Assembly (NCBI GenBank): GCA_913043225.1
Contig: CAJWLU010000045.1
Location: 1-16,289, forward strand
DNA length: 16,289 nt
Source of the DNA: an uncultured Acidobacteriota bacterium
GTDB lineage: Bacteria > Acidobacteriota > Vicinamibacteria > Vicinamibacterales > UBA8438
Direction of reading: 5' to 3'
Positions 1,612 to 15,063 of the stretch are shown here, in pieces. Under the pieces are notes generated by a model. That model was given only the letters and a program-made list of their open reading frames with translations, was not told the DNA's origin and made no database searches. Within the stretch, counting starts at the first letter, position 1, and each line of letters begins with the position of its first letter. The position numbers and the translations under genes were made by a program.

Positions 1612-2622
1612 TTACGGTCTCAGCTCACGGCCCAGGCGCTCCAGATTCCGCGCGCCGGCCAGAATTCCGTGGAGGCCAATGTTGCCTTCGTGGCAGGCGT
1701 ACTCGAAGAGCGGTCCGTCGGTTCGGCGGAACGGCATCATCACCGTATAGGGCTGGGTGTACACGGTCGGGTCGGTCACCGTGTATTCATAGGCCACCGT
1801 GTCCGGATCCAGGCGCGTCAGGCGCTCCACCAGATGCATATTGGTCGACGTCAGTCCACTACTGCCCCCAGCATACTGGGTGGTCTCGATGACCAGCGTC
1901 TCCCCGTCCCAGTGCGCCCGCGACACGCCGCTGCGCTGATCGAAGGGCGGCTTCGCGGCCTCCTCGGCTCCCGGCTCGGTGATCGGAATGATCCGCGCGT
2001 TGTGCACCATCTCGTTCAGGATGGCCACGTACCCGGGCGCCTGGAAGATCATCACGTTGTTGTTGTAGGCACTCGACCGCATCGGCGGACCGGCATTGAA
2101 TCCCATGATGCAGCGGTCGCCCGTGCTGCGATTCTCATAGGAGTTATAGGCCCGGGCCACTCGCTCCTCGCGGGTCAGCTGCGGCATATCCGAATTGGTG
2201 GACTGCGGCACCCGCTCCGGTAGCCGGCCGTTCGAGGGGTCGACAATGAGCGACGTTCGCTTGTCCGACGTCAGCTCGATGCCGCGCTCGTACCAGAACT
2301 CGTTGTAGGAGAGCACGCCGCCCTCAGCACGTGGCCGATAGCCTCCGGAGCCCCTCTCAGGATCGAACAGGTCGCGATTCTGCCTAGTCCGCTCAGATGC
2401 CTCGAATGCCGCAGCTGTTTCCGCGTCGAGTGTTTCCTGGTCGGCGAACTGCGACGGACGTTGGAACGGCGTGATGGTGCGGAAGGTGAAGATGCCGGAC
2501 ACGTCGGGTTGTCCATCCGGCGTCTGCATAGGCATGGTCCGGTCGGCCTCTTGTGCCACCACCACCGAAGCCAACCCTACTCCGATCAATCCGACGGCGC
2601 CGACGGCAAGCCACTTCTTCAT
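1612..2622 (-). CDS. Conserved secreted hypothetical protein (EYACHEGN-type, two Cys), 336 aa
   Basis: ATG at 2622 (MKKWLAVGAVGLIGVGLASVVVA-QE, Sec signal) with AAGGAG upstream. Motifs TPDGQPDVSG, RTSLIVDP, DRC, HWDGETLVIET, HLVERLTR and FEYACHEGN fit a widespread uncharacterised family. Confidence 0.85.
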   Translation of the reverse strand: MKKWLAVGAVGLIGVGLASVVVAQEADRTMPMQTPDGQPDVSGIFTFRTITPFQRPSQFADQETLDAETAAAFEASERTRQNRDLFDPERGSGGYRPRAEGGVLSYNEFWYERGIELTSDKRTSLIVDPSNGRLPERVPQSTNSDMPQLTREERVARAYNSYENRSTGDRCIMGFNAGPPMRSSAYNNNVMIFQAPGYVAILNEMVHNARIIPITEPGAEEAAKPPFDQRSGVSRAHWDGETLVIETTQYAGGSSGLTSTNMHLVERLTRLDPDTVAYEYTVTDPTVYTQPYTVMMPFRRTDGPLFEYACHEGNIGLHGILAGARNLERLGRELRP

Positions 2623-2700: not shown

Positions 2701-3792
2701 TTAAACGCCGTACCGGGCAACGGCGTCCTCGTCCCAATCCATGCCCACACCAGGTGTATCGGGTATCTGCAGCGAACCGTCCACTACCGGGTAGGGCTCT
2801 TTCAGAATCGGATCCGCCCAACTCTGCCACTCAAGCCAGTGCGCAGTCTCGGTCACCCGCATCACGTGGGCCCCGACTTCCGGATACAGGTGGGTCGACA
2901 TCGGCACACCCGCTGCGCCCGCGATGCCCGCCGCCCGAAGCCACCCGGTCACGCCGCCGATCCGCATAAAGTCTGGCATTACTAGGTCGCACGCCCGATG
3001 GACGATTGCCCGGTGCAGCGCCCTGGGACCGTAGAAGTTCTCACCGATCTGGAGTGGCGTCGACAGCTGCTCCCTCAGCGTCCGGTAGCCATCGAGATCG
3101 TCATAGACGATCGGCTCTTCGATCCAGCAGAGCCCGCGGTCGTCGATCTGATGGCAGCGGCGCATCGCCTGCTCCAAATCAAGGCTCTGGTTGTAGTCGA
3201 CCATCAACTCGACGTCCGGTCCGACCGCCTCGCGAACGCGATCCAGCGTCTCGAGGTCGTCCGCCGCCCGCTCGCGGCCGAGACGAAGCTTCAATGCCGA
3301 GAAGCCACCCTCTGCCACCAACTCGCTAGCCTCCTCGGCCACAGCCTTGGGCTCGAGCAGCCAGAGCCCGTTGCTGTTGTAGGCTCGGACTGGTCCGACC
3401 GTCCCCCCGAGCAGATCGCAGAGCGGCTGTTCCCGTACTTTCGCCGCGGCATCCCACGCGGCCATGTCGACCCCAGCCACGGCGATGGCCGCCATTCCTT
3501 CGTAACCGACAAAGTGCAGCGACTTCCTGGAGTCCTCGAACAGGTCCACCGGCGCCACGGGACGCCCCGACAGCAACTCACCAAGATCCTCAACGGCTGG
3601 AACTAGGTACCGCATAGTCTTCGCCGTGTAGGGACCAAGGTAGCTCCGTCCAACGACGCCCTGGTCCGTTTCGAGATCGATGAGAATCAGCGGCCACTCG
3701 TGAATGGTCGAGATCCGGATCACCACCGGTCTCGCCAACGGTACAAGCACCGGTCGTGCGCGGATGCGGCGAATGGTTAGCGGTGTCGACAT
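2701..3792 (-). CDS. Mandelate racemase/muconate lactonizing enzyme family (enolase superfamily), mandelate racemase subgroup
   Basis: Clear colinear similarity to P. putida MdlA as recalled: LILIDL-T--GVVGRSYL, DMAAWDA, MVDYNQSLD, WIEEP, GENF-GP, MPD-M-IGGVTGW, PMSTHL, AHWLE, IPD-PGVG. The catalytic KxK motif reads KLR. Confidence 0.93.
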   Translation of the reverse strand: MSTPLTIRRIRARPVLVPLARPVVIRISTIHEWPLILIDLETDQGVVGRSYLGPYTAKTMRYLVPAVEDLGELLSGRPVAPVDLFEDSRKSLHFVGYEGMAAIAVAGVDMAAWDAAAKVREQPLCDLLGGTVGPVRAYNSNGLWLLEPKAVAEEASELVAEGGFSALKLRLGRERAADDLETLDRVREAVGPDVELMVDYNQSLDLEQAMRRCHQIDDRGLCWIEEPIVYDDLDGYRTLREQLSTPLQIGENFYGPRALHRAIVHRACDLVMPDFMRIGGVTGWLRAAGIAGAAGVPMSTHLYPEVGAHVMRVTETAHWLEWQSWADPILKEPYPVVDGSLQIPDTPGVGMDWDEDAVARYGV

Positions 3793-3794
3793 AG

Positions 3795-4793
3795 TCAGGC
3801 CAGTAGTTCGAGCAACGCATCCGACACGGCATCCGGTCGGTGCGCGGGAAGGTCATGACCGGCACCCTCCACGAGACGCCGCGCGACCAGATTCGGGAAG
3901 CGACGCTGATCGCCGCTTGGATCAGACGACGGTCGACCGAACCCGCTGTCGAGACCACGGAGCACAATGGCCGGCACCGTGATCGGTGGACGCTCAGCCA
4001 ACCGGCCCTCGACCTCGAGAAAGCGCTCCTCTCCTGGCGCGTTGACGTGACGATGCCTATACGAATGGATAACGATGTCCACGAAGTCAGGATTATCGAA
4101 CGATGGGGCGGAGCGGTCGTACACCTCGTCGGTGTACTCCCAGCCGGGCGACCAGGTATCCCAAAGATACCGGACGATATCGTGCCGATTGCTTTCGAGG
4201 CCCACCCGACCGCGCTCGGTATTGAAATACCACTGGTACCAGAGCCGAGCCTCGCCCACCGCCCGACCTGGCCGGCCCGGCGTAACGGTGTTCTGTACCG
4301 AGTAGCCGCCGATCGCTACCTGCGCCCGCACGCGCTCCGGGTAGAGGATGGACGTGATGCACGCTGCCCGATTGCCCCAGTCGAATCCAGCCAGCGCGCA
4401 CTGGTCGATACCGAGGGCATCAGCGAAGTCGACCACATCCTGCGCGATGGCCGCCTGCTCGGCCATCCGGGGAGCATCGGGATCAAGAAATCGGGTCTGG
4501 CCATACCCGCGGAGATAGGGCACGAGTACCCGATGCCCCGCCGACACCAGTGGTTCTGGCACGCCGTCCCATGACCGGATGTCGTAGGGAAATCCGTGCA
4601 GAAGGATGATCGGAAACCCATCGACTGGACCATGCTCCTCGTATCCGATCTCCAGAACCGGAGTCCGCACGGTCCGCACCCTAGCCTGCATGGCCCACTC
4701 TCCAGACATGCTCCGCACTCGGGCGGACTCCGTACCTAGCGTGGCGGCAGTCACCGCACCTGCTTTCAGGAACTCTCGACGTGTTGCGGTCAT
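3795..4793 (-). CDS. Alpha/beta hydrolase, epoxide hydrolase-like, with twin-arginine leader
   Basis: TRREFLK Tat motif; LLHGFP oxyanion motif; GFDWG nucleophile Asp; WYQWYF and SYR tyrosines; GAGH catalytic His. Ends 2 nt before the next start codon. Confidence 0.9.
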   Translation of the reverse strand: MTATRREFLKAGAVTAATLGTESARVRSMSGEWAMQARVRTVRTPVLEIGYEEHGPVDGFPIILLHGFPYDIRSWDGVPEPLVSAGHRVLVPYLRGYGQTRFLDPDAPRMAEQAAIAQDVVDFADALGIDQCALAGFDWGNRAACITSILYPERVRAQVAIGGYSVQNTVTPGRPGRAVGEARLWYQWYFNTERGRVGLESNRHDIVRYLWDTWSPGWEYTDEVYDRSAPSFDNPDFVDIVIHSYRHRHVNAPGEERFLEVEGRLAERPPITVPAIVLRGLDSGFGRPSSDPSGDQRRFPNLVARRLVEGAGHDLPAHRPDAVSDALLELLA

Positions 4794-4817: not shown

Positions 4818-6461
4818 CTAGCCCCGTCGTAGAAGCTCGGTGGCGTAGAACGGCTCAAGGTCGTCAATCGCATCGAGGCCCTGACGGTCGACATCCCACT
4901 TGAACTGTCTAATCAACACTCGATCCCGCTCGAAGTCGACGAGTGTGAAACCGTGATCCTCGATGGGCGCTGCCGACTCTTCCACATCAAGATGGGCCGG
5001 CGGGGTAGCTCCGATCCCACGAACCACCGACGGGAAACCACGAATAGAGGTACCAATCGGGCCACTCAGCACCGCTGTCACCGGACGCGCGGCTAGGTTG
5101 ACACTTCCCGCGCGATGGAGGCGCCCCGTGCCGATGGCGTGCAAGTCGCCGCTAATGACCAGCGGTGCACGCTCGCGCTGAGTGCCTATCGCCTGGAGCA
5201 ACCTGTCGTGCTGGCGGAGCCACCCTTCCTGCCAGTACGGTTTCTCGACCGCGGTCGTGAGTTCGCCCCGCTCAGGGTCGAGGACATCCGGATACCACTC
5301 GCCCCACTTCCCCGCGCTCCAACCAAAGGGGTTCGAGGGCGCATGCACCAGATGGCGGGTCTCCTCGGTCCCGGTCCGATCCTTAAGCCATTGTTCGACC
5401 TGTCCGTCGAGGAACACTGCATTAGGCCCACCCAAGTTCATGGTGCGGCGGACGTCATAGAGCAGCACCTCGGCCAGATCGCCGTAGCGGACGGTGCCGA
5501 AGCTCTCGGAGACGTCACCACGGTCGAACGTGCCGGACCACGGCAGCCCCAACGGGCGCCGCGCGTCCGGAAGGAACTCGGGATAAAACAGCCGCTGTGT
5601 CGCGCGGGCCAGCTGCAACTGAAACCACGGTACCGGAAAACTGGCGATGAGGTCCGTGACCGCATCGTTCTCCCAATGGTCATGGTCATCCTGCAGGAAG
5701 AACACGGGCACCGACCGGAAATCGGCGCCATAAACTGGCACGAACTGCGGCGCAACGGCCGCCTTCATCGCCACCTCGTTGCTCTGACCGAATACCGACG
5801 CCGAGAAATCGAAATTCGATCGCCGTCCGCTCGCGCTCAGCTGCCCAGCGTTCTCACCCTGCCAGGTGTGCAGATCCCAATAAATGTGATCGCCATTGGC
5901 GACCGCCGCATCGGGGGCAAACGACAGCGCCCGCCGCAGTAGCCGGTTCCGGATGGCTGTGGGCAAGAACCCCTGGCGCTCTCCGATGCCCTCATAGCTA
6001 CCACTAGGACCACCGGCGCAGGTAAAGAACAGCATCCGAAACCGGTCCGGCTGGCTGTCTGGCGACGGAAACGTCGACAGCGGCCACGGTTCGCAGAGCG
6101 CACGCCCGCCTGCATCCGCGAGCGACAGCTCGTAGCGACGGCCCGGCTCGAGATTCCCGACATCGAACTGCCAGTACTCGCCGACGGTGTCGCTCATCTC
6201 ACCGTCGACCGAAGTCGAACCGACTTGTAGCCGAGGCGCCCGGGAATGCGGCTCACCGAAGGAGGCCTTCACGATGATGCGGGTGTCGCTGACCTGCGGC
6301 AGCAGATGGCGGACCGCCCCGACGTCCCAGTCCTGGACCGCGGGCGGGACGCCCTGCTCGGCCATTGCCTCGAGCGGTAGCCGGGAAAAGAACGCCGCGC
6401 CCATCGCGCCGGCGCTTTCCGCAAGGAATCGTCGACGATCGACGATTTGTCGGCGAGGCAT
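4818..6461 (-). CDS. Tat-exported PhoD-like (alkaline phosphatase D) metallophosphoesterase
   Basis: DRRRFLAE Tat motif, then in PhoD order FFTC, NGDHIYWD, QDDHD-WEN, YDVRR and SGDLH. Confidence 0.8.
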   Translation of the reverse strand: MPRRQIVDRRRFLAESAGAMGAAFFSRLPLEAMAEQGVPPAVQDWDVGAVRHLLPQVSDTRIIVKASFGEPHSRAPRLQVGSTSVDGEMSDTVGEYWQFDVGNLEPGRRYELSLADAGGRALCEPWPLSTFPSPDSQPDRFRMLFFTCAGGPSGSYEGIGERQGFLPTAIRNRLLRRALSFAPDAAVANGDHIYWDLHTWQGENAGQLSASGRRSNFDFSASVFGQSNEVAMKAAVAPQFVPVYGADFRSVPVFFLQDDHDHWENDAVTDLIASFPVPWFQLQLARATQRLFYPEFLPDARRPLGLPWSGTFDRGDVSESFGTVRYGDLAEVLLYDVRRTMNLGGPNAVFLDGQVEQWLKDRTGTEETRHLVHAPSNPFGWSAGKWGEWYPDVLDPERGELTTAVEKPYWQEGWLRQHDRLLQAIGTQRERAPLVISGDLHAIGTGRLHRAGSVNLAARPVTAVLSGPIGTSIRGFPSVVRGIGATPPAHLDVEESAAPIEDHGFTLVDFERDRVLIRQFKWDVDRQGLDAIDDLEPFYATELLRRG

Positions 6462-6466
6462 GGCGC

Positions 6467-6499
6467 GATTATACGCAGGTCTCGGGCCCGCGTATCATC
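6467..6499. promoter_or_regulatory. Symmetric divergent promoter region with two outward-facing -10 elements
   Basis: TATAAT on the minus strand (6468-6473), 6 nt before the ATG at 6461, and TATCAT on the plus strand (6493-6498). Arms GATTATACGC / GCGTATCATC form a 9/10 inverted repeat. Confidence 0.6.
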
Positions 6500-6526
6500 C
6501 GTTGGTACTCACTTCCAGGAGGACGC

Positions 6527-7075
6527 ATGCCAAGAATGGTTCGCCGCCCAGGACGAGGCATCCATAGCGCCACCGCCGTGCTGGGGGTCGCACTGCTACT
6601 AGCTTCGCCAACGGCAGTGCAGGACCGCCCCGCCGACGACATCCGCGACGTCATCGAGGGGACGTGGCGGCTGGTCGAATGGCACGTTGGTGACCGGGTG
6701 CTCCGCCCACCAGAAATGGAGGGTATGTGGATGGTCCACGACGGCTGGGTAATGGCCACCAGACACCGCCAGGGACAGGGCGACTTCGAGTCGACGGCCG
6801 GATACGGCTCCTACAGCTGGGATGCGACCGGGTGGACCTATGGTTACGAACGGTCGGAAGACCGCCGGGGCAGGTCCCCCGAGGATGCGCCCCTCCGCGT
6901 AACGGAGATTCCACAACGACGCTTCGCGATCACGAGCGAGGGCGACCACCTGATTCTCGAGGACGACGCCCAGACACTCCGCTGGGACTACGACATCCCG
7001 GGCGACACCTTCACGCTGATGGGCCGAAACCGCCGCGTCATCCGGGTCTACGCACGCATCACGGATCTACAGTGA
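6527..7075 (+). CDS. Exported lipocalin-like beta-barrel protein, 182 aa
   Basis: AGGAGG RBS before ATG at 6527; signal peptide (AVLGVALLLASPTA); IEGTWRLVEW and AGYGSY motifs resemble lipocalin-like domains. Confidence 0.7.
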   Translation: MPRMVRRPGRGIHSATAVLGVALLLASPTAVQDRPADDIRDVIEGTWRLVEWHVGDRVLRPPEMEGMWMVHDGWVMATRHRQGQGDFESTAGYGSYSWDATGWTYGYERSEDRRGRSPEDAPLRVTEIPQRRFAITSEGDHLILEDDAQTLRWDYDIPGDTFTLMGRNRRVIRVYARITDLQ

Positions 7076-8015
7076 TGATGGCGTCTTGCCAAGAGAAGAG
7101 CGCGCCATCGCCGGCGACCGCCCGCAAGACGTAGGTACCCGGCTGGTCGAAGGTGGCCGTCACCTCGTACTTACCGTCTTCAGGCACGGGAGGAAGCTCG
7201 AACGGCGGCGACCAGGGTGAATTCGCGTACGGCCTACTATCCTGCCAGGTCTTCATCTGGATAGGGTCGAACGTCACCTCCCCCTCGCCGCGATAGACAT
7301 ACCAGGAGAATCGGAGACCGTTGTTGTTTCCGGGCACGATCTGCCGCGGCGGCGTGTACGCCGGGTGCCGGTCCCGACGTGCCGAGCGCGGCCCCTGAGG
7401 CCGCAGGGTAACGCCGCTCTTGGTCGAAGACGGGATGCCGTCGTCATCGCTCGCCCAGGCCGTCAACATCAGTGGCTCCCCGACCCTGACCCGCCGCGGT
7501 TCGTCCGCATCGAGCCGCACTGCCGGCGGCTCGTTCCACTGCCAGTCCTTGCTGACCCCGCCCCGATTCGCCCCGACCTCTGTCGCGATCGTCTGCTTGT
7601 CGACGAGGTAGTCGGTGCGCAAAGACGCATAGGTCCGGTTCGTCTGTCCGTTCGCCGTGAGCGTCCAGACCAACTCCTTATCGCCAAAGTCGGCCGGCAC
7701 CACGATCTCGAAACGAAAGAGGTTACGCCGGGGCAAGAATCGGGCGGGCTGCCCCTGGTCCGGCCCGCCAGGCTCGATGTTGTTCAGTGGACCGACCGGT
7801 ACGTCCAGCACCTGCTCCCAGTTGTCGTTCATGTAGCCGAAGAACAGCGTATAGGTGCCGTCTCCGTTCTGCCACCAGCCTTCGAACGCCGGCCAAACGC
7901 CTTGGCCCCGCGAGTAGCTCGACTGTGCCGCGGCGTTCGCTGTCACGAGGAGCCCCAGACATAGCGCCCCGAGCGTCCTGACGCCACCGCCGGTGGTCGT
8001 CACCCTACTGGCCAC
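7059..8015 (-). CDS. Secreted hypothetical protein with probable C-terminal Ig/PKD-like domain; coupled to the upstream monooxygenase gene
   Basis: GTG at 8015 follows GGAGG and overlaps the upstream stop (GTG at 8003 is an alternative). Signal LGALCLGLLVTANAAA-Q; motifs PAFEGW, FFGYMNDN, GQP-RFLPRR, ELVWTLT; Ig-like NEPP-V...ASDDDG...ATFDQPGTYVLRAVAGDG...ITV. Confidence 0.8.
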   Translation of the reverse strand: MASRVTTTGGGVRTLGALCLGLLVTANAAAQSSYSRGQGVWPAFEGWWQNGDGTYTLFFGYMNDNWEQVLDVPVGPLNNIEPGGPDQGQPARFLPRRNLFRFEIVVPADFGDKELVWTLTANGQTNRTYASLRTDYLVDKQTIATEVGANRGGVSKDWQWNEPPAVRLDADEPRRVRVGEPLMLTAWASDDDGIPSSTKSGVTLRPQGPRSARRDRHPAYTPPRQIVPGNNNGLRFSWYVYRGEGEVTFDPIQMKTWQDSRPYANSPWSPPFELPPVPEDGKYEVTATFDQPGTYVLRAVAGDGALFSWQDAIITVDP

Positions 8016-9429
8016 CCTCGGCCTCCATCTGGGACGGAAACTCAGCCAGACACAGCGGACATCCAACCACGTAGTCGTTCTTTGTGAGGTTCAGACGTGT
8101 CCGGCGCGCCAACATCTCGCGCTCGAACTCCTCATCGGAGAGAGCAATGCCCTCACCCAGATCGATGAACATGTTCGCCACCGACCGGCGTCCTCCACCG
8201 CCCCAGTTCCGCGGGTCCGCCACATTTCGATTCGAGGGCGTGGTATCCATGAATCCGGTCAGGTGCAGGATGGTCCCTTCCGGAAGCAGGGGTGCGGCAT
8301 CGTCAGCATACACGTAGCTGCGCACCCAGTTGTGGTCGTAGCCCGCACAGGTCAGGGTCTCAATCTGGTGTCCCCAGATCGCTTCAAGACACATGCGGAT
8401 TCCGGGCGCGTGCATATGGGGCTCGAAGGTCAGGATCTTGGTGTTCTGCTGAAGCACGACATAGGCGTGAAGTTCCTGGTCCTTCATGGTTGGCTTCACC
8501 GAGATGTCGATGCCGTTTCCGGTGAACCGCCGCACCCACTGCACCTCAGGTTCGTAGCCGACCGGATGCAGCTTGAACGCGAACTCCAGATACGCCAGGG
8601 TATCTCGACCGTTCGAGTGGAGATGCGCGGTCTCGAGGTTGAGCACCGAATCGGCCGACAGAATCCGGCCTGCGTTGTCCGGGAAGATGTCGGCGTTTCG
8701 TCCCACCTCGTGCACCGGCCAGACCGTGGTCTTGTCGGAGGTGAAGGCGTCCGGGTCCTCGTCCTCGAGCGGGTGCGACGACCAGTTGAGGTGATGGAAG
8801 ACGAAGCGCCCGCCGACGGTGTTGCTTCCCCCCTCAGCCGGCACGTCGTTGACCTCGCGGATCTCGACCGCCGCGACATACCGATCCTCAGTGAGCCCCG
8901 TCGGGACCAGACCGACCGGCTCCCACCGATCGGCGCCGGTCGCGCGCACAAGAATCTCGGGCGACCGCAGCACCAGGTCAGGAGTCCCGATACGCCAAGC
9001 GTCCTCGTCCCCGTCGTTGAAGCGGGGCGGGGGCAGTTCGGCCGGATTGCCGCGCGGAGCGCCACTGTCGGCCCAGCGACCGATCATGTCGATCTCCTTG
9101 TCGCTGAGCGAGGGGTCGTCCTTGAAATGCTGGATGCCGATGTCCTTCTCGACGAACCACGGCGGCATCGCCCCGCGCTCATTCCGCAGCGCGGTACGCT
9201 GCTTGATCGCGCGGACCCACGGCCGGACTTCTTCGTAGGTCAGCAGCGACATCGGCGCAACGGAATTCGGCCGATGGCAATGCTGGCAACTCCGCTGGAG
9301 AATCGGAGCGATGTCGCGGGTAAAGGTGACGTCGGTCTGCGCCTGGGCCAACGCCCCAGGAACGATCAGGAGCGACAACGCTCCCGCCACAGTGACGGCC
9401 CGGACAACGACTCGACGGGGACTCTGCAT
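8005..9429 (-). CDS. Secreted cytochrome c / copper type II (PHM/DBH-like) monooxygenase fusion protein
   Basis: Signal peptide; TFTRDIAPILQRS-CQHCH heme c site with distal AMPPW Met; VFHH and AHLH (CuH-like His set); PHMH and distal ANMF (CuM-like His-x-His...Met); YDHNW; C-terminal CPLC. Confidence 0.8.
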   Translation of the reverse strand: MQSPRRVVVRAVTVAGALSLLIVPGALAQAQTDVTFTRDIAPILQRSCQHCHRPNSVAPMSLLTYEEVRPWVRAIKQRTALRNERGAMPPWFVEKDIGIQHFKDDPSLSDKEIDMIGRWADSGAPRGNPAELPPPRFNDGDEDAWRIGTPDLVLRSPEILVRATGADRWEPVGLVPTGLTEDRYVAAVEIREVNDVPAEGGSNTVGGRFVFHHLNWSSHPLEDEDPDAFTSDKTTVWPVHEVGRNADIFPDNAGRILSADSVLNLETAHLHSNGRDTLAYLEFAFKLHPVGYEPEVQWVRRFTGNGIDISVKPTMKDQELHAYVVLQQNTKILTFEPHMHAPGIRMCLEAIWGHQIETLTCAGYDHNWVRSYVYADDAAPLLPEGTILHLTGFMDTTPSNRNVADPRNWGGGGRRSVANMFIDLGEGIALSDEEFEREMLARRTRLNLTKNDYVVGCPLCLAEFPSQMEAEGGQ

Positions 9430-9476
9430 GGTGCACTCCCTCGAGAAGACTGGATTGTCAGCTTACCTAAGCGGCG

Positions 9477-9505
9477 ACGGTAGCATGCCCCCAGTGCACC
9501 GTCAA
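9477..9505 (-). promoter_or_regulatory. Candidate sigma70 promoter for the monooxygenase operon
   Basis: TTGACG-17 nt-TACCGT with a TGn extended -10 on the minus strand. Confidence 0.5.
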
Positions 9506-9542
9506 TCAACCCGGCATCAGCGCCGATCTCACCGTGCGCCGC

Positions 9543-9548
9543 TATAAT
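9543..9548 (+). promoter_or_regulatory. -10 element for the PQQ dehydrogenase operon
   Basis: Perfect TATAAT 33 nt upstream of ATG 9582 in GC-rich DNA; no recognisable -35. Confidence 0.5.
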
Positions 9549-9581
9549 CGAGCTACTCTTCGACTGCCGAAAGGACTACCC

Positions 9582-11507
9582 ATGCGCCCGTCCTTCGTTC
9601 GCCGTTCCCTGATTGGATTCCTGCTGTCGAGCGTCTTAGGTCTCGCTCCAGCCTCGGCCCAGGTCTCGTGGACCCACGTCGGTGCCGACGAAGGCAACAC
9701 ACGCGCGTCGGCCGCCGATCAAATCACTCCCGCCAACGTGGATCAGTTGCGTCAGGCCTGGAGCTGGCAGCCGGAGGACCGCCCCCGGCCGGAGTACGGC
9801 ACGACGCCAGGAAGCTTCACGAGCACGCCAATCATGATTGACGGCACCGTCTTCGTGAGCTCCAACTACAATCGGGTAGCTGCGCTGGACCCCGCAACCG
9901 GCGAGGAAAAGTGGGTCTTCGACCCTCGGGCGTACGAGGGCGGAATGCCGACGCTCGGTGGCGGCTTTCGACACCGTGGCGTTACGGTCTGGCGCGATGG
10001 CGACGACTTGCGCATCTTCCTTGCAAGCCGGTTCCGCCTGTTCTGTCTGGACGCAGCCACTGGTGAGGTCGTGCCCTCATTTGGCGAGGGGGGCATCGTC
10101 GATCTTAGTCGCGACCTAATCTGGTCGATCGAACAGAGCCACTTCGAGTTCAACGCCGCGCCGGTGATGTTCAAAGATCTCGTTATCGTCGGCAGCGCCG
10201 TCGGCGACCGGGTAATCTATCGCCGGACCCCACCAGGCGACGTCCGAGCGTACAACGCACATACGGGCGCGTTGGTCTGGAGCTTCCACACGATCCCCCA
10301 GGAGGGCGAGTTCGGTAGTCAGAGCTGGGAAAACGAGTCGTGGCGCTACACGGGCGCAACCAACGTCTGGGCCGGCGTGACCGTCGACGAAGCGAACGAG
10401 CGGGTCTATCTGCCCGTCGGGAACCCCACTAACAGCTACTACGGCGGCTCTCGTCTCGGCGACAACCTGTTTGCCGAGAGCATCGTGGCGCTCGACGCTA
10501 ACACCGGCGAGCGGGACTGGCACTTCCAGATCGTCCACCACGGCGTCTGGGACTACGACCTGCCGACTCAGCCGATGTTGATGTCAATTACCGTCGAGGG
10601 GCGTGACATCGACGCGATCGCGCAACTCACCAAGCAAGGACTGATCTTCACCTTCGATCGGCTCACCGGCGAACCTGTCTGGCCAATCGAAGAACGGGAA
10701 GTCCCTCAAAGCGACGTGCCGGGTGAGCGGACCGCGCCCACGCAGCCGTTTCCGACCCAGCCCCCAAACGTGCTGCCCCAAGCAGGGATGACCGGCGACG
10801 ATCTCTTCGACCTCACACCGGAGCTGGCCGCGGCTGCCCGTGAGGCGATGAACGGATTGCGCACCGGACCGCTGTACACCCCTCCAAGCCTGGAGGGCTC
10901 GCTCGTCCGTCCAGGCGGCGGGGGGGCGATCAACTGGGGCGGCGGCGCCTACGACCCCGACACCGGCTACCTCTACGTCAAAACCTCGAACATGCCGGCA
11001 GTCTTCACCCTGGCGAAGTTCGATCCTCAAACTACCCGGAACCCATTCGCTGACACCGACGACCCAGACTACGTCGGCTACGACACTGTCACCGGACGGC
11101 GGCCGACGTTCGAAGGCGGTCTACCGCTCAACCGCCCCCCCTACGCATACTTGGTAGCCGTCGATATGAACGCCGGCACGATCGCGTGGCGCGTGCCCTT
11201 CGGCCGTGGCAGCGACCGGATCCGGAACCATCCGGGACTGGCCGACGTCGAGGTGCCAGACCGGCTCGGCACCCCAGGCGCCCCGGGAGGGTTTGTTACG
11301 GCAGGTGGGCTCTATTTCGCAGGGGGCGGCGAAGACGCGTTGTATGCCTTCGACAAAGTGACCGGCGAGGAACTGTGGCATGGCGCGCTCATCGAGCGCT
11401 CGACGGCCACGCCGATGACCTACGAAACCGACGACGGACAGCAGTTTGTGCTAATCGCGACCGGCTCCGGCGCCAACCAGGAACTCGTCGCGTTCTCGTT
11501 GCCGTAA
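9582..11507 (+). CDS. Secreted PQQ-dependent dehydrogenase, glucose/quinate/shikimate dehydrogenase-like without membrane anchor, 641 aa
   Basis: AAGGA RBS and ATG at 9582; signal ASA-Q; DQITPANV, repeated ALD--TGE--W beta-propeller motifs, GSAVGD, PGDVRAY, VGNP, GDNLFAES, HHGVWDYDLP, PTQPFP, GGAINWGG, ATPMTY. Confidence 0.92.
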   Translation: MRPSFVRRSLIGFLLSSVLGLAPASAQVSWTHVGADEGNTRASAADQITPANVDQLRQAWSWQPEDRPRPEYGTTPGSFTSTPIMIDGTVFVSSNYNRVAALDPATGEEKWVFDPRAYEGGMPTLGGGFRHRGVTVWRDGDDLRIFLASRFRLFCLDAATGEVVPSFGEGGIVDLSRDLIWSIEQSHFEFNAAPVMFKDLVIVGSAVGDRVIYRRTPPGDVRAYNAHTGALVWSFHTIPQEGEFGSQSWENESWRYTGATNVWAGVTVDEANERVYLPVGNPTNSYYGGSRLGDNLFAESIVALDANTGERDWHFQIVHHGVWDYDLPTQPMLMSITVEGRDIDAIAQLTKQGLIFTFDRLTGEPVWPIEEREVPQSDVPGERTAPTQPFPTQPPNVLPQAGMTGDDLFDLTPELAAAAREAMNGLRTGPLYTPPSLEGSLVRPGGGGAINWGGGAYDPDTGYLYVKTSNMPAVFTLAKFDPQTTRNPFADTDDPDYVGYDTVTGRRPTFEGGLPLNRPPYAYLVAVDMNAGTIAWRVPFGRGSDRIRNHPGLADVEVPDRLGTPGAPGGFVTAGGLYFAGGGEDALYAFDKVTGEELWHGALIERSTATPMTYETDDGQQFVLIATGSGANQELVAFSLP

Positions 11508-11569
11508 GCCCGTACTTAGGTTCGGATTGGCGGTCGACTACCCTTGGTCGCCTGGAGGACGAACGCCCG

Positions 11570-13291
11570 ATGATCTCGCAGACCCGAATCGCCTACCTAT
11601 TCCTACTCGCCGCCAGCCTCAGCCTGGCGCCGCCCGTGGCGGCCCAGAACGTCGACTGGCGCCTGCACAACCTCGATCTCCATGGCAGCCGCTTCTCCGA
11701 AACCGACCAGATCACGCCGGAGAACGCGCACCTGCTGACGCCGCGCTGGTTGTTCCAGCACGGGGTCATCGACGGGGTCAGCAACCAGACCACCCCAGTG
11801 ATCGTCGATGGCGTCATGTACGTGACCGACTCCCGCGGGAGCGTGTACGCCGTCAACGCCAAGGACGGGCACCTGCTGTGGACCTATGACGTCACACAGC
11901 TGCTGGGTGGCGGTCGCCAGGAGGGTTACATCTTCCGCCACCGTGGCGTGACCTATGCCGATGGTGTGGTGTACAGCGCGGCCGGCTCATTCATGTTCGC
12001 ACTCGACGCCGAAACCGGCGATCCCATCGAGGGCTTTGGTGAGAACGGCCAGGCGTCGGTCATTCTGGATATCCTGAGGCTCCGCTATCCGGACACGGAG
12101 ACCGCCATCTCTATGGGCTACTGGTTCACCAGCGCCCCTCAAATTCATGAGGGTGTCTTGTACGTCGGGGCAACCCGGAGCGAGAGCATGATTCCGGGCG
12201 GGTACGTACTGGCCATCGACGCCAGGACCGGCGAGGTGCTCTGGCACTTCAACACCATCCCCCAGGACGAGAACGACCAGGGCTGGGACATCGCCGGCTC
12301 GACCTGGGTCGGCGGCGGCCGCAACGGCGGCGGCATCTGGGAAACCCCGTCAATCGATCCGGAACTGGGCCTCCTTTATATCGCCGTAGGCAACCCCTTC
12401 GGTGACAGCACCAAGCGGGGGGGCATGAATTTGTTCACCGATTCGATCGTGGCGCTGTCGCTCGAAAATGGTCAGATGGAGTGGTACTACCAGCAGGTGC
12501 ACCATGACGTCTGGGACTACGACAACGGCCAGCAACCGGTGCTGTTTGACATGGTGGTCGACGGCGAAGCGGTCAAGGCGTTGGCCCAAGCCAACAAGAA
12601 CAGCTGGCTCTACATCTTGAACCGCGAGACCGGCGAGCCGGTGCACCCCATTCCAGAGATGCCGGTCTCGACCGAAACCGACCGTGAAGGTGAACAGCCC
12701 TGGCCGACCCAGCCAATTCCCCACAAGGCAAACGGGGAGATGATGGAACCGGTGTCGCCAGTGGTCCCGACCGACATCGATCCTGAGCACCTCGCGGAAA
12801 ACACCGTCGTTCCGCAGTACACGCCGCTCGGCCCCAACCAGATCTTTGCACCCGGTATGGGCGGCGGCGCCAACTACGGTCCAATTGCCTATAGCGACGA
12901 CACCGGCCTGCTATACGTCAACGCCATCGACATGCCCTACAACGCTGGCCGTGGGCGACGGCCGAAGGGCTACTTCTCGGCGTACGACCCGACCACTGGC
13001 GAGCTCATCTGGCGGCAGATATTCGACGGCTACGGCCAGGCGGGCGCCGTCGTCACCAAGGGGGGCGTGGTCTTCGTCGGCGCCGGCAGCAATGAAGCCG
13101 GTTACTTCTACGCCTATGACGCGAAGACCGGTGAGGAGCTCTGGAAGTTCAACACCGGCTCCGGCATCTTCGCCTCACCCTCGGTCTACATGGTTGATGG
13201 GGAAGAGTTCATCACCGTCGCCTCGGGCGGCGGCTCTCGCGGCCGTCGAGGTGGCGACCTGATCCTGAGCTTCGCCCTGCCGCCACAGTAG
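11570..13291 (+). CDS. Secreted PQQ-dependent dehydrogenase (alcohol/sugar type, no vicinal disulfide), 573 aa
   Basis: GGAGG then ATG at 11570 (MISQTRIAYLFLLAASLSLAPPVAA-Q); SRFS--DQIT, TTPVIVDGVMY, GGGIW, VGNP, HHDVWDYD, ANKN, PWPTQP, GGANY, YAYDAKTGEELWKF. Confidence 0.92.
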   Translation: MISQTRIAYLFLLAASLSLAPPVAAQNVDWRLHNLDLHGSRFSETDQITPENAHLLTPRWLFQHGVIDGVSNQTTPVIVDGVMYVTDSRGSVYAVNAKDGHLLWTYDVTQLLGGGRQEGYIFRHRGVTYADGVVYSAAGSFMFALDAETGDPIEGFGENGQASVILDILRLRYPDTETAISMGYWFTSAPQIHEGVLYVGATRSESMIPGGYVLAIDARTGEVLWHFNTIPQDENDQGWDIAGSTWVGGGRNGGGIWETPSIDPELGLLYIAVGNPFGDSTKRGGMNLFTDSIVALSLENGQMEWYYQQVHHDVWDYDNGQQPVLFDMVVDGEAVKALAQANKNSWLYILNRETGEPVHPIPEMPVSTETDREGEQPWPTQPIPHKANGEMMEPVSPVVPTDIDPEHLAENTVVPQYTPLGPNQIFAPGMGGGANYGPIAYSDDTGLLYVNAIDMPYNAGRGRRPKGYFSAYDPTTGELIWRQIFDGYGQAGAVVTKGGVVFVGAGSNEAGYFYAYDAKTGEELWKFNTGSGIFASPSVYMVDGEEFITVASGGGSRGRRGGDLILSFALPPQ

Positions 13292-13296
13292 ACATC

Positions 13297-15063
13297 ATGC
13301 ACTCACCCAAGCTGCGTCTCGTTCCGTCGCTCGTCATCGCCCTCGCCCTCAGCGCGACGGCCTTGGCCCAGCCGCAGGCAGATGCGTCGAACGACACGTT
13401 CGTCCCCATAACCGACGCCATACTGCAAGCGCCCGCGCCTGAGGATTGGCTGATGTGGCGTCGTACGCTCGACGGCTGGGGGTACAGCCCACTCGACCAG
13501 ATCGACAGGAGCAACGTTGACGATCTACGAATGGTGTGGACCCGAGCCCTGAACAGCGGCAACCAGCAGGGCACCCCGCTCGCCTACCAGGGTGTCCTCT
13601 ACATGCCAAACCCGAATGACGTGATCCAGGCGCTCGACGGGGCAACGGGCAACCTTGTCTGGGAACATCGGCGAAACCTTCCGGACGACCTCAATGCACA
13701 CATGGGCGGGCTGGTCTCTACTAAACGCGCGATCGCGATTCATGGTCGATACATCCTCGACACCACGGGCGACGACTACCTGATGGCACTTGACGCGGTA
13801 ACTGGCGAGATGGCGTGGGAGACCCAGATCCTCGACTACACGGTCAATCCCGCGCTGCAGACCTCCGGCCCGATCGTGGCTAATGGCAAGGTCATTTCCG
13901 GCCGGAGCTGCCGCGGAACCGCCACCCCGGACGCCTGCGTGATCACCGCGCATGACGCCGTGACCGGGGAAGAGCTCTGGCGGCGCCGCACAGTGCCCGG
14001 CCCAGGCGAACCAGGCGACGAGACCTGGGGCAACGTGCCGTTCGAGGATCGTAAGCATGTCGGCACCTGGATGGTGCCCAGCTACGACCCCGAACTGAAC
14101 CTGATCTATATCGGCACGTCGGTTACCTCACCGGCACCAAAGTTCATGCTCGGTGGCGCCGACCTGGCGCACCTCTACCACAACTCAACGCTCGCGCTCG
14201 ACGCAGACACCGGCGAGATTGTTTGGTACTACCAACATCTGAACGACCACTGGGATCTCGACCATCCGTTCGAGCGCCTCCTGATCGACACGCAGGTGGC
14301 GCCGGACCCAGACGAGGTGAGCTGGATCAACCCACGACTCCAACCCGGAGAGACCCGAAAGGTCATGACCGGCATTCCGGGCAAGACCGGCGTCGTCTAT
14401 ACCCTGGACCGGGAAACGGGCGAGTTCCTCTGGGCCACTCCTACGGTCGCTCAGAACGTCATCAACGACATCGATGGCGCCACCGGCTCGGTGGCCGTGA
14501 ACGCCGAGGTGGTCTTCTCGGCGCTGGGACAGGAGCTGATGTCCTGCCCCAGTTGGGCGGGAGGGAAAGACTGGGAAGCAGGCGCTTACAGCCCGCTGAC
14601 CGGCCGAATGTACTACCCGCTCCGGAACGCTTGTCAACGGCTGCTGTCGACCCTGGAAGGGGGCATCACCACCTACGCGCTGGCGGCCCGCCACATCCTG
14701 ACGCCGGGCACCGACCAGCTGGGGACGGTGCGCGCCATCGCGGTCGACACAGGACGCACTGAATGGCTCTACGAGCAACGGGCCGCCACGATGTCATTGG
14801 TCGCTACCGGGGGCGGTCTACTCTTCGGAGGAGACACCAACGGCCGGTTCCGTGCGTTCGACCAGGACACGGGTGCCGTCCTCTGGGAGGTCAACCTCGG
14901 CTCACCGGTGAGCGGCTATCCCATCTCCTTCGCCGCCGATGGCCAGCAGTACATCGCTGTCAGTACCGGCACCTCCGGCAACGCATCGATCAACCTCCGC
15001 ATGACACCCGAGCTTCAGCCGAGCATGGGTAACAACCTGTTCGTGTTCGCCTTGCCTGACTAA
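13297..15063 (+). CDS. Secreted PQQ-dependent dehydrogenase (divergent alcohol/polyol type), 588 aa
   Basis: Signal ALA-Q; DWLMWRRT-DGWGYSPLDQI, GTPL, AHDAVTGEELWR, YDPELNLIY, DHWDLDHP, GKTG, GGKDW, TGGGLLFGGD, GYPISF-ADGQQYIAV. Starts 5 nt after the previous stop. Confidence 0.92.
   Translation: MHSPKLRLVPSLVIALALSATALAQPQADASNDTFVPITDAILQAPAPEDWLMWRRTLDGWGYSPLDQIDRSNVDDLRMVWTRALNSGNQQGTPLAYQGVLYMPNPNDVIQALDGATGNLVWEHRRNLPDDLNAHMGGLVSTKRAIAIHGRYILDTTGDDYLMALDAVTGEMAWETQILDYTVNPALQTSGPIVANGKVISGRSCRGTATPDACVITAHDAVTGEELWRRRTVPGPGEPGDETWGNVPFEDRKHVGTWMVPSYDPELNLIYIGTSVTSPAPKFMLGGADLAHLYHNSTLALDADTGEIVWYYQHLNDHWDLDHPFERLLIDTQVAPDPDEVSWINPRLQPGETRKVMTGIPGKTGVVYTLDRETGEFLWATPTVAQNVINDIDGATGSVAVNAEVVFSALGQELMSCPSWAGGKDWEAGAYSPLTGRMYYPLRNACQRLLSTLEGGITTYALAARHILTPGTDQLGTVRAIAVDTGRTEWLYEQRAATMSLVATGGGLLFGGDTNGRFRAFDQDTGAVLWEVNLGSPVSGYPISFAADGQQYIAVSTGTSGNASINLRMTPELQPSMGNNLFVFALPD

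Follow-up and report, generated by a model that had tools for sequence, protein, structure and literature searches.

Does the close proximity of a gene for a haem-copper enzyme and three genes for pyrroloquinoline quinone (PQQ) dehydrogenases in an uncultured member of the Acidobacteriota mean that their products form a dedicated electron transfer module? The stretch of DNA that raises this question, referred to here as the window, is the 16 289 nt of contig CAJWLU010000045.1 (contig C45 of the source genome G000, a 3.85 Mb assembly that is 96 % complete), and the named homologues of its proteins are mostly from the Vicinamibacterales or Acidobacteriota. The initial annotation had proposed that the dehydrogenases may reduce a haem fused to a copper monooxygenase and so drive hydroxylation in the periplasm. 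When re-read from the sequence, the five-gene arrangement was found to be real, with the genes for the enzyme and a partner protein on the minus strand and, head-to-head with them across a spacer of exactly the length first given, three tandem PQQ dehydrogenase genes (PQQ1, PQQ2 and PQQ3) on the plus strand (Table 1).

The locus is made up of two divergent gene units, a conserved enzyme-partner operon and a PQQ array that was put together piecemeal. On balance, the enzyme appears to be a periplasmic, O2-dependent monooxygenase whose haem is fed from a shared cytochrome pool, and the PQQ trio is probably not a set of donors dedicated to it. The pair of enzyme and partner holds real interest, a five-gene module is not established, and the window locus is a weak example of a link to PQQ dehydrogenases.

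The haem-copper enzyme

The predicted haem domain occupies approximately residues 33–135 of the enzyme and the copper core approximately residues 148–435. A single CxxCH motif lies near the N-terminus of the helical domain, which is predicted to be exported, as in class I mono-haem cytochromes c, and two candidate distal haem ligands, M60 and M88, are each kept in 72 of 73 close homologues. Searches of Pfam and NCBIfam with the enzyme returned a sub-threshold cytochrome match alone, and PF13442 was detected in 60/73 close members at E ≤0.05. PF01082 and PF03712 matched neither the window enzyme nor any of the 73 close members; among 45 more distant members, 26/45 and 5/45 match at E ≤0.01, and part of the wider enzyme family already matches PF03712.

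The six predicted copper ligands, which are invariant in the alignment of close homologues (A2), are also invariant in 45/45 more distant members, the CuM methionine included. Searches of PDB sequences with the single sequence or with A2 did not reach peptidylglycine α-hydroxylating monooxygenase (PHM), and only the broader alignment A4 did so. A profile of 45 family members matches PHM (E 3.3e-10) and dopamine β-hydroxylase (DBH; E 5.1e-9) with the ligands in register. The structure model (pLDDT 83) consists of a helical domain at approximately residues 36–121 and a beta core, and Foldseek matched it to the PHM/DBH fold with an E value of 4e-10. Its best structural match is DBH (PDB 4ZEL; Z 16.1, root mean square deviation 3.4 Å over 264 residues), followed by PHM at Z 15.8; the best 26 matches are all DBH or PHM (Z 13.3–16.1) and the first unrelated fold scores Z 8.0, though identity to PHM and DBH in the structural alignment is just 10–12 %. 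Judged from the alignments and the model, the enzyme keeps the two-jelly-roll fold and both the CuH and the CuM site of the type II copper monooxygenases. The haem motif, the six ligands and the fold match agree, and the fusion of a haem c domain to a copper monooxygenase core that had been proposed is upheld.

PHM (the PAM core; PDB 1PHM, 1OPM, 1SDW, 6ALA) is like the window enzyme in its two-domain jelly-roll core (Z 14–16), in a three-His CuH site and a His-His-Met CuM site that are in register, and in secretion, export of the window enzyme being predicted. The window enzyme differs in having an N-terminal c-type haem domain and a coupled gene for a partner with an immunoglobulin (Ig) fold. 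DBH carries an N-terminal DOMON domain where the window enzyme has cytochrome c, and a protein would take the place of ascorbate as electron donor. Tyramine β-monooxygenase belongs with DBH as a close known system.

The residues that hold the substrate in PHM are not kept. The PHM Arg, Asn and Tyr, which we take to hold the peptidylglycine carboxylate, align with E336, I422 and L424 of the window enzyme, and across the enzyme family with Glu/Gln, Ile/Phe and Leu/Trp; at E336 the 73 homologues have E (46), Q (26) or A (1). Because these positions are not kept, peptide amidation is unlikely. No gene resembling that for the PAL lyase of PAM lies beside any of the 19 enzyme modules in G000, and among the loci of relatives a PAL-like open reading frame, named by eye, is found within 4.5 kb in 10/136. 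Amidation by a combination of PHM and PAL was rejected because of the substituted glycine-binding residues and the neighbourhood.

The 19 enzyme paralogues in G000 are divergent (29–59 % identity). There are 9–48 enzyme matches per genome in 18/18 genomes of the same family, and at least 7527 matches were found among the best 8000 candidates scored. A C-terminal CxxC (residues 457–460; 8050–8061 of the window, minus strand) is present in 45/73 close homologues and absent from the others. In the distant Acidobacteriota loci L235 and L228, tandem arrays include up to five enzyme paralogues that have no partner.

Work on PHM and DBH, which produce amidated hormones and noradrenaline in animals, has concerned enzymes supplied with ascorbate, and the route of electrons to and across their two-copper site has long been argued. 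A soluble homologue from bacteria that carries its own haem would offer a spectroscopic handle and a natural entry point for electrons from a protein, and the family could be a major unrecognised route for the oxidation of organic compounds in the Acidobacteriota. No publication on a haem-fused bacterial PHM/DBH family was found in a literature search that had subscription journals mostly outside its scope.

The partner protein

The GTG start codon of the partner gene overlaps the end of the enzyme gene by 11 nt and has a GGAGG 6 nt before it. The partner adjoins the enzyme in 116 of the 129 loci with enough flank (out of 136, those with short flanks being dropped; L050 and L080, which are near-identical to the window, were left out), and all 13 copies in G000 adjoin an enzyme gene. 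The conserved unit is the enzyme plus its partner, and the coupling noted in the initial annotation stands. More distant members often have no partner, which is present at 9/53 enzyme genes in what we call the phylum set (40 regions from 12 more distant genomes, out of 18 that bear the enzyme). A clade of enzymes with 64–70 % identity (L068–L070 and L072–L078) also has no adjacent partner gene.

Two Ig-like beta-sandwiches, at approximately residues 37–135 and 159–318, are predicted in the partner (model pLDDT 87), the second resembling a PKD domain. PKD was matched in 22/80 members of the partner family, and an Atlas search returned unnamed clusters, one of which has PKD in 19 % of its members. 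No PDB sequence matched the partner below E 0.1, and its best fold match (Z 8.4) is within the range of generic Ig sandwiches, so no function follows from the fold. Parts of the partner are matched many times over in three proteins of 943–3944 aa (P0152, P0172 and P0237), and these sequences suggest that the partner domains are also used as repeat units in large exported proteins. The probable role of the partner is that of a structural subunit or of one that presents the substrate.

The N-termini of all five proteins have basic residues followed by a hydrophobic stretch, and in four of the five there is no later hydrophobic 19-mer scoring >1.2, the exception being PQQ1 at 1.26. By this hydropathy check, which is not a signal-peptide predictor, all five look exported.

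The three dehydrogenases and the history of the locus

All three dehydrogenases include the propeller domain and catalytic Asp of PQQ dehydrogenases, and score well above the PF01011 cut-off of 26.7 bits (PQQ1 645, PQQ2 365 and PQQ3 211 bits); as had been stated, CxxCH is absent from each. None reaches the NCBIfam cut-off for a named subfamily (PQQ1 scores 438 bits with TIGR03074, cut-off 833), and the solved structures nearest to PQQ3 are 4CVB (E 1e-132), 9M2C, 7WMD and 4MH1. The trio share the propeller, the catalytic Asp and a second Asp with known PF01011 quinoproteins (QH-ADH 1KB0/1YIQ, PedH 6ZCW, 4CVB/4MH1/7WMD, TIGR03074) and differ from them in having no haem domain, membrane anchor or vicinal Cys pair. 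The second Asp, in a D-x-D motif, has been taken as a marker of lanthanide use (PMC11996626). The motif is present in PQQ1, PQQ2 and, by alignment, PQQ3, and in 52 of the 62 PQQ paralogues of G000 that could be parsed (80 in total), and is not proof that a lanthanide is used. CxxCH is present in 6 of 82 G000 matches above 100 bits. Acidobacteria have been listed among genomes with up to 70 PQQ dehydrogenases (PMC11996626), in a report whose main text does not include the words copper or cytochrome.

The biosynthesis gene pqqC (TIGR02111, PF03070) was not found in G000 despite its completeness, nor in G001, G003, G007, G009 and G015. Four of these, G001, G003, G009 and G015, share the arrangement seen in the window. 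TIGR02111 was above its cut-off in 6/31 genomes, and the single PqqD match has no pqq genes alongside, as judged by eye. Vicinamibacteria have been reported to scavenge PQQ (PMC12124388).

Of 11 orthologous loci (76–81 % identity), 10 have an orthologue of PQQ2 head-to-head with the enzyme gene. PQQ1 is at 0/11 of these loci and PQQ3 at 2 of the 7 for which a long stretch upstream was available. The same 10 loci also keep the PhoD-like gene or the gene for a 198-aa protein that are found in the window, or both, and hence the whole block is syntenic. Thirteen PQQ2 orthologues were examined in 12 relatives: three are directly beside an enzyme gene, one is beside it through PQQ1 and one is 3.2 kb from a distant enzyme paralogue. 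For the other eight no enzyme gene was found in the 16–20 kb fetched, one of them having an enzyme paralogue approximately 12.6 kb away according to the genome-wide enzyme search. In G004, G011 and G018, PQQ2 is present with the PhoD block and the slot of the enzyme pair is held by an ankyrin-like gene (by eye). Nine PQQ1 orthologues (67–92 % identity; four matches at 53–57 % were left out) include one, in the same-genus relative, that has an enzyme gene beside it, and in the 13–20 kb fetched around the other eight there was none.

Comparison of these sequences indicates that, in the genus of the window, PQQ1 took the place of PQQ2 at the shared spacer. From the positions of the orthologues, the trio is a recent assembly, and the older tie of PQQ2 is to the PhoD block. 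The three PQQ genes do not make up a fixed module, and there is no fixed PQQ orthologue that stays with the enzyme. The PQQ genes that neighbour enzymes are varied: grouping of the 27 examined gave 21 groups at 60 % identity (17 at 50 %), and they lie on either side of the enzyme on either strand and are scattered over the enzyme tree. The proposal that three dehydrogenases form a dedicated module with the enzyme is not supported by these findings.

Adjacency to PQQ genes in the source genome

A PQQ gene within 600 bp or less was scored as adjacent. By this measure 2 of the 19 enzyme modules in G000 touch a PQQ gene, both divergently, and 17 do not. PQQ genes make up 3.9 % of G000 and approximately 10 % of the regions holding clusters of the enzyme, PQQ and control families. 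Two control families touch PQQ genes at 17/88 and 3/14, and PQQ genes touch one another at 13/80. The family with 88 paralogues, which are clustered on the same contigs, is represented in the window (1612–2622, minus strand) by an exported protein that matches nothing in Pfam or NCBIfam, and touches PQQ genes more often than the enzyme does. Small stand-alone cytochrome c genes served as the positive control; of the 14 chosen from 50 matches for a frame of at most 360 aa, 6 touch a PQQ gene, five of them on the same strand (Fisher p 0.047 vs the enzyme). The adjacency of enzyme and PQQ genes within G000 is not above chance. A caution in the initial annotation, that both families may simply be abundant in such genomes, explains most of what is seen at the window locus.

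It had also been argued that dehydrogenases without a haem need an acceptor and might find it in the enzyme. This argument is weak. The small cytochromes adjoin PQQ genes in G000, so that the haem-less quinoproteins there have other obvious acceptors. Moreover, PQQ genes adjacent to the enzyme in other genomes are more often haem-bearing (6/18 vs 2/42, with four of the six belonging to one orthologous group), which is the reverse of what the argument would have.

Association in other genomes

A looser association survives across genomes. The evidence for it is modest and runs counter to pure chance, and the points gathered in this and the next paragraph weigh against our reading that the trio are not dedicated donors. 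PQQ genes cover 11.4 % of the sequence 0.3–2 kb from the enzyme and 4.6 % of that at 4–8.5 kb in 112 loci that are rich in Vicinamibacteria (of 136, loci with short flanks being dropped; orthologues are included, L050 and L080 are not), with a sign-flip p of 0.001 before kin were merged. In the phylum set the corresponding cover is 4.8 % near the enzyme and 0.9 % at 4–8.5 kb. In 60 paralogue loci, hand-picked among the 150 that were listed out of 535 matches, a PQQ gene adjoins 10 modules compared with 2/34 control genes, and in G000 two further control families touch PQQ genes at only 1/18 and 0/32.

Of 81 genomes from the phylum, PQQ dehydrogenases were detected in 12/18 with the enzyme and 9/63 without it, and every one of the nine genomes that encode at least three enzymes has them. 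Three of the 53 enzymes in the phylum set touch a PQQ gene, all on the same strand and all among the nine that have a partner. At four further loci (L155, L161, L166 and L186), a haem-bearing PQQ gene is directly upstream of the pair on the same strand. The persistence of PQQ2 at orthologous loci, described above, is to be added to these points.

Other figures limit how far this evidence goes. The near/far p values become 0.036, 0.083 and 0.30 when kin are merged at thresholds of 75, 70 and 65 % identity, and a control family put through the same test was enriched 1.4- to 2.1-fold. Outside the orthologue clade a PQQ gene is adjacent in 15/114 loci (of 125; short flanks dropped), and 50/53 enzyme genes in the phylum set have none within 600 bp. 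No PQQ match at 1e-40 was found in 6/18 enzyme-bearing genomes; the best 20 and 14 candidates per genome were scored, which leaves the PQQ-negative status of G050 and G080 uncertain, and kin were not independent. A further PQQ-negative genome, G052, is unpublished and without it the count is 12/17. Overall, PQQ genes in other genomes are enriched 2.5-fold and 5.6-fold near the enzyme, and the genes concerned come from about 20 subfamilies. The check on gene neighbourhoods called for at the outset therefore gave a mixed answer, namely a modest enrichment in other genomes, where the two families also co-occur, and none in G000, with the former weakening as kin are merged.

The loci on one strand are better test cases than the window locus. 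Those in distant families (L208, L209 and L213) have the order PQQ-partner-enzyme or enzyme-partner-PQQ, and at L209 the profile matches of the partner and the PQQ gene abut. The PQQ genes at L155, L161, L166 and L186 form one orthologous group with 75–84 % mutual identity, and the nearest homologue in G000 lies at a distance of 97 kb from the closest module. L058, L061 and L100, which belong to the clades most closely related to the window enzyme, have immediately downstream of the pair a gene for a PQQ enzyme that carries cytochrome c at its N-terminus.

The divergent spacer

The initial annotation had noted promoter-like elements on both strands of the spacer, and the one on the minus strand was borne out. 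In an alignment of spacers from the window, its same-genus relative and 10 of the 11 orthologues (L052 was left out), TTGAC, 17 nt and TGnTAnnnT are invariant in 12/12 and face the enzyme gene. On the plus strand there is a lone TATAAT toward PQQ1, with no good −35 element by eye. A scan of the spacer for consensus promoters had found 0 sites (1.5 ± 1.2 in shuffles); it missed the conserved pair and was replaced by the alignment. An RNA run that included 8 % of window words gave oligo-dT contigs in scattered short pieces that differ from the window; these carry no information on strand or level, and the run was set aside.

Electron supply and alternative explanations

From the genes we infer an exported enzyme loaded with haem and copper, in which the haem would replace ascorbate as the point of entry for electrons from a periplasmic donor. 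A candidate donor is a small cytochrome c, itself fed by any of the approximately 80 quinoproteins or by the respiratory chain. The haem would pass electrons singly to CuH and onward to CuM, where O2 would be activated and a C–H bond of the substrate, probably not a glycine-extended peptide, hydroxylated. PQQ dehydrogenases would then be plausible but replaceable suppliers, which would explain why their enrichment across the family is weak. Viewed in this way, the useful outcome is a conserved unit of enzyme and Ig-fold partner, with PQQ dehydrogenases as candidate, interchangeable donors.

In chains built on the fungal CcPDH and the Cellvibrio cytochrome CjX183, the monooxygenase is a mononuclear lytic polysaccharide monooxygenase (LPMO) and the cytochrome is separate from it. 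The chemistry that had been invoked for the window does have precedent in such systems, in that CcPDH, an AA12 PQQ dehydrogenase with an AA8 cytochrome, has been reported to drive an LPMO (PMC5960967) and CjX183, a cytochrome c, to reduce one (PMC8981238). The window proteins would share with them the extracytoplasmic logic of dehydrogenase, cytochrome and copper monooxygenase, and differ in that a binuclear PHM-type core and the haem share one polypeptide, with electron transfer being a prediction from the genes. These precedents favour a direct chain in which one of the haem-less quinoproteins encoded alongside, with PQQ2 the most plausible, would dock on the fused haem and so drive the copper core, each enzyme clade being paired with its own dehydrogenase. 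Such pairing would likewise yield many PQQ subfamilies, and both the retention of PQQ2 and the local enrichment across the family are in its favour. We nevertheless think a dedicated chain of this kind unlikely. The two sets of genes diverge and each has putative promoter elements of its own, PQQ2 has no enzyme nearby in 8/13 cases, the PhoD block is kept alone in three genomes, and PQQ1 displaced PQQ2 from the spacer in this genus. Of the 19 enzymes in G000, 17 are without a PQQ gene next to them, small cytochromes more usually neighbour such genes, and no pqqC was detected in G000 or in four genomes with the same arrangement (G001, G003, G009 and G015). A fixed cognate dehydrogenase kept with the monooxygenase, as in PDH/CDH-LPMO systems, was not found for the enzyme family at the loci examined.

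The two families could also be neighbours in a pathway, with the enzyme hydroxylating a periplasmic substrate and a PQQ dehydrogenase oxidising the resulting alcohol. Two electrons could then return to the haem in a redox-neutral loop, by analogy with methane monooxygenase and methanol dehydrogenase. If each substrate needs its own dehydrogenase, a recurring association of genes that are not orthologous is explained, and the operon-like cases at L208, L209 and L213 and the joint expansion of both families are consistent with this. We rate it as improbable, given that there is no enrichment in G000, that the enrichment elsewhere loses significance with kin merged and is to be set beside 1.4- to 2.1-fold for the control family, and that PQQ1, PQQ2 and PQQ3 are three subfamilies with separate histories. 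A narrower version, in which the enzyme clade of the window and the PQQ2 clade make a self-sufficient loop, a lanthanide/PQQ dehydrogenase oxidising the alcohol made by the enzyme and electrons returning through the fused haem, is doubtful, with perhaps a slim chance of being correct. If it were true, Vicinamibacteria would run many clade-specific pairs that oxidise dissolved organic compounds, and would do so using neither ascorbate nor NAD(P)H.

It is very unlikely that the haem-copper protein is instead an electron sink, that is an oxidase or peroxygenase that reoxidises periplasmic cytochromes via its copper site. In favour of such a function are the PHM peptide-binding positions that are not kept (E336, I422 and L424, with roles assigned as we understand them), the low identity to PHM and DBH and the single haem-copper oxidase subunit I found in G000 for some 80 quinoproteins. 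Against it, each of the six ligands, the CuM methionine among them, is kept without exception (73/73 and 45/45), and the 19 divergent paralogues suggest diversification of substrates and not one sink function. A monooxygenase supplied from a shared pool of cytochromes is thus the explanation we prefer.

Flanking genes and other observations

Table 1. Positions of the genes, predicted motifs and putative promoter elements in the window
Feature	Position	Strand	Description
Enzyme gene	8005..9429	-	474 aa; predicted mono-haem cytochrome c fused to PHM/DBH-type two-copper core; export predicted
CxxCH haem motif (C48, C51, H52; residues 48–52)	9274..9288	-	C/C/H in 71/73 homologues
CuH-type ligands H212, H213, H269	8623..8796	-	73/73 in alignment A2; align with PHM His-His and third His
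CuM-type ligands H338, H340, M420	8170..8418	-	73/73 in alignment A2; align with PHM His-x-His and Met
Partner gene	7059..8015	-	318 aa; two predicted Ig-like domains; export predicted
Divergent spacer	9430..9581		exactly 152 bp, enzyme gene to PQQ1
Sigma-70-like promoter of enzyme-partner operon	9477..9505	-	−35 at 9505–9500, extended −10 ending 9477; putative function
TATAAT hexamer upstream of PQQ1	9543..9548	+	shared with same-genus relative; putative function
PQQ1 gene	9582..11507	+	641 aa; soluble glucose/quinate/shikimate-dehydrogenase-like quinoprotein
PQQ2 gene	11570..13291	+	573 aa; alcohol-dehydrogenase-like quinoprotein, cysteine-free
PQQ3 gene	13297..15063	+	588 aa; sorbose/alcohol-dehydrogenase-like quinoprotein
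198-aa protein gene	6479..7075	+	exported-looking; no family match; single copy in G000
PhoD-like metallophosphatase gene	4818..6461	-	N-terminus with RR; context block opposite PQQ genes
Alpha/beta hydrolase + mandelate-racemase-like gene	2701..4793		block with PhoD-like gene

The gaps between PQQ1 and PQQ2 and between PQQ2 and PQQ3 are 62 bp and 5 bp. The block formed by the PhoD-like gene and the alpha/beta hydrolase and mandelate-racemase-like gene stays with PQQ2 in relatives whether or not the enzyme pair is present, and the 198-aa gene likewise accompanies PQQ2 in both situations. The end of the 198-aa gene overlaps that of the partner gene by 17 nt, and this gene was found in 8/11 orthologous loci.

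At the contig end (15414–16289, minus strand) is the 3′ part of a gene for a TonB-dependent receptor with a His/Asp-rich repeat, the best match of the fragment being ZnuD, below threshold. The proteins of L050 are 98–100 % identical to those of the window, and its record bears a proteobacterial class name, unlike those of the other close relatives.

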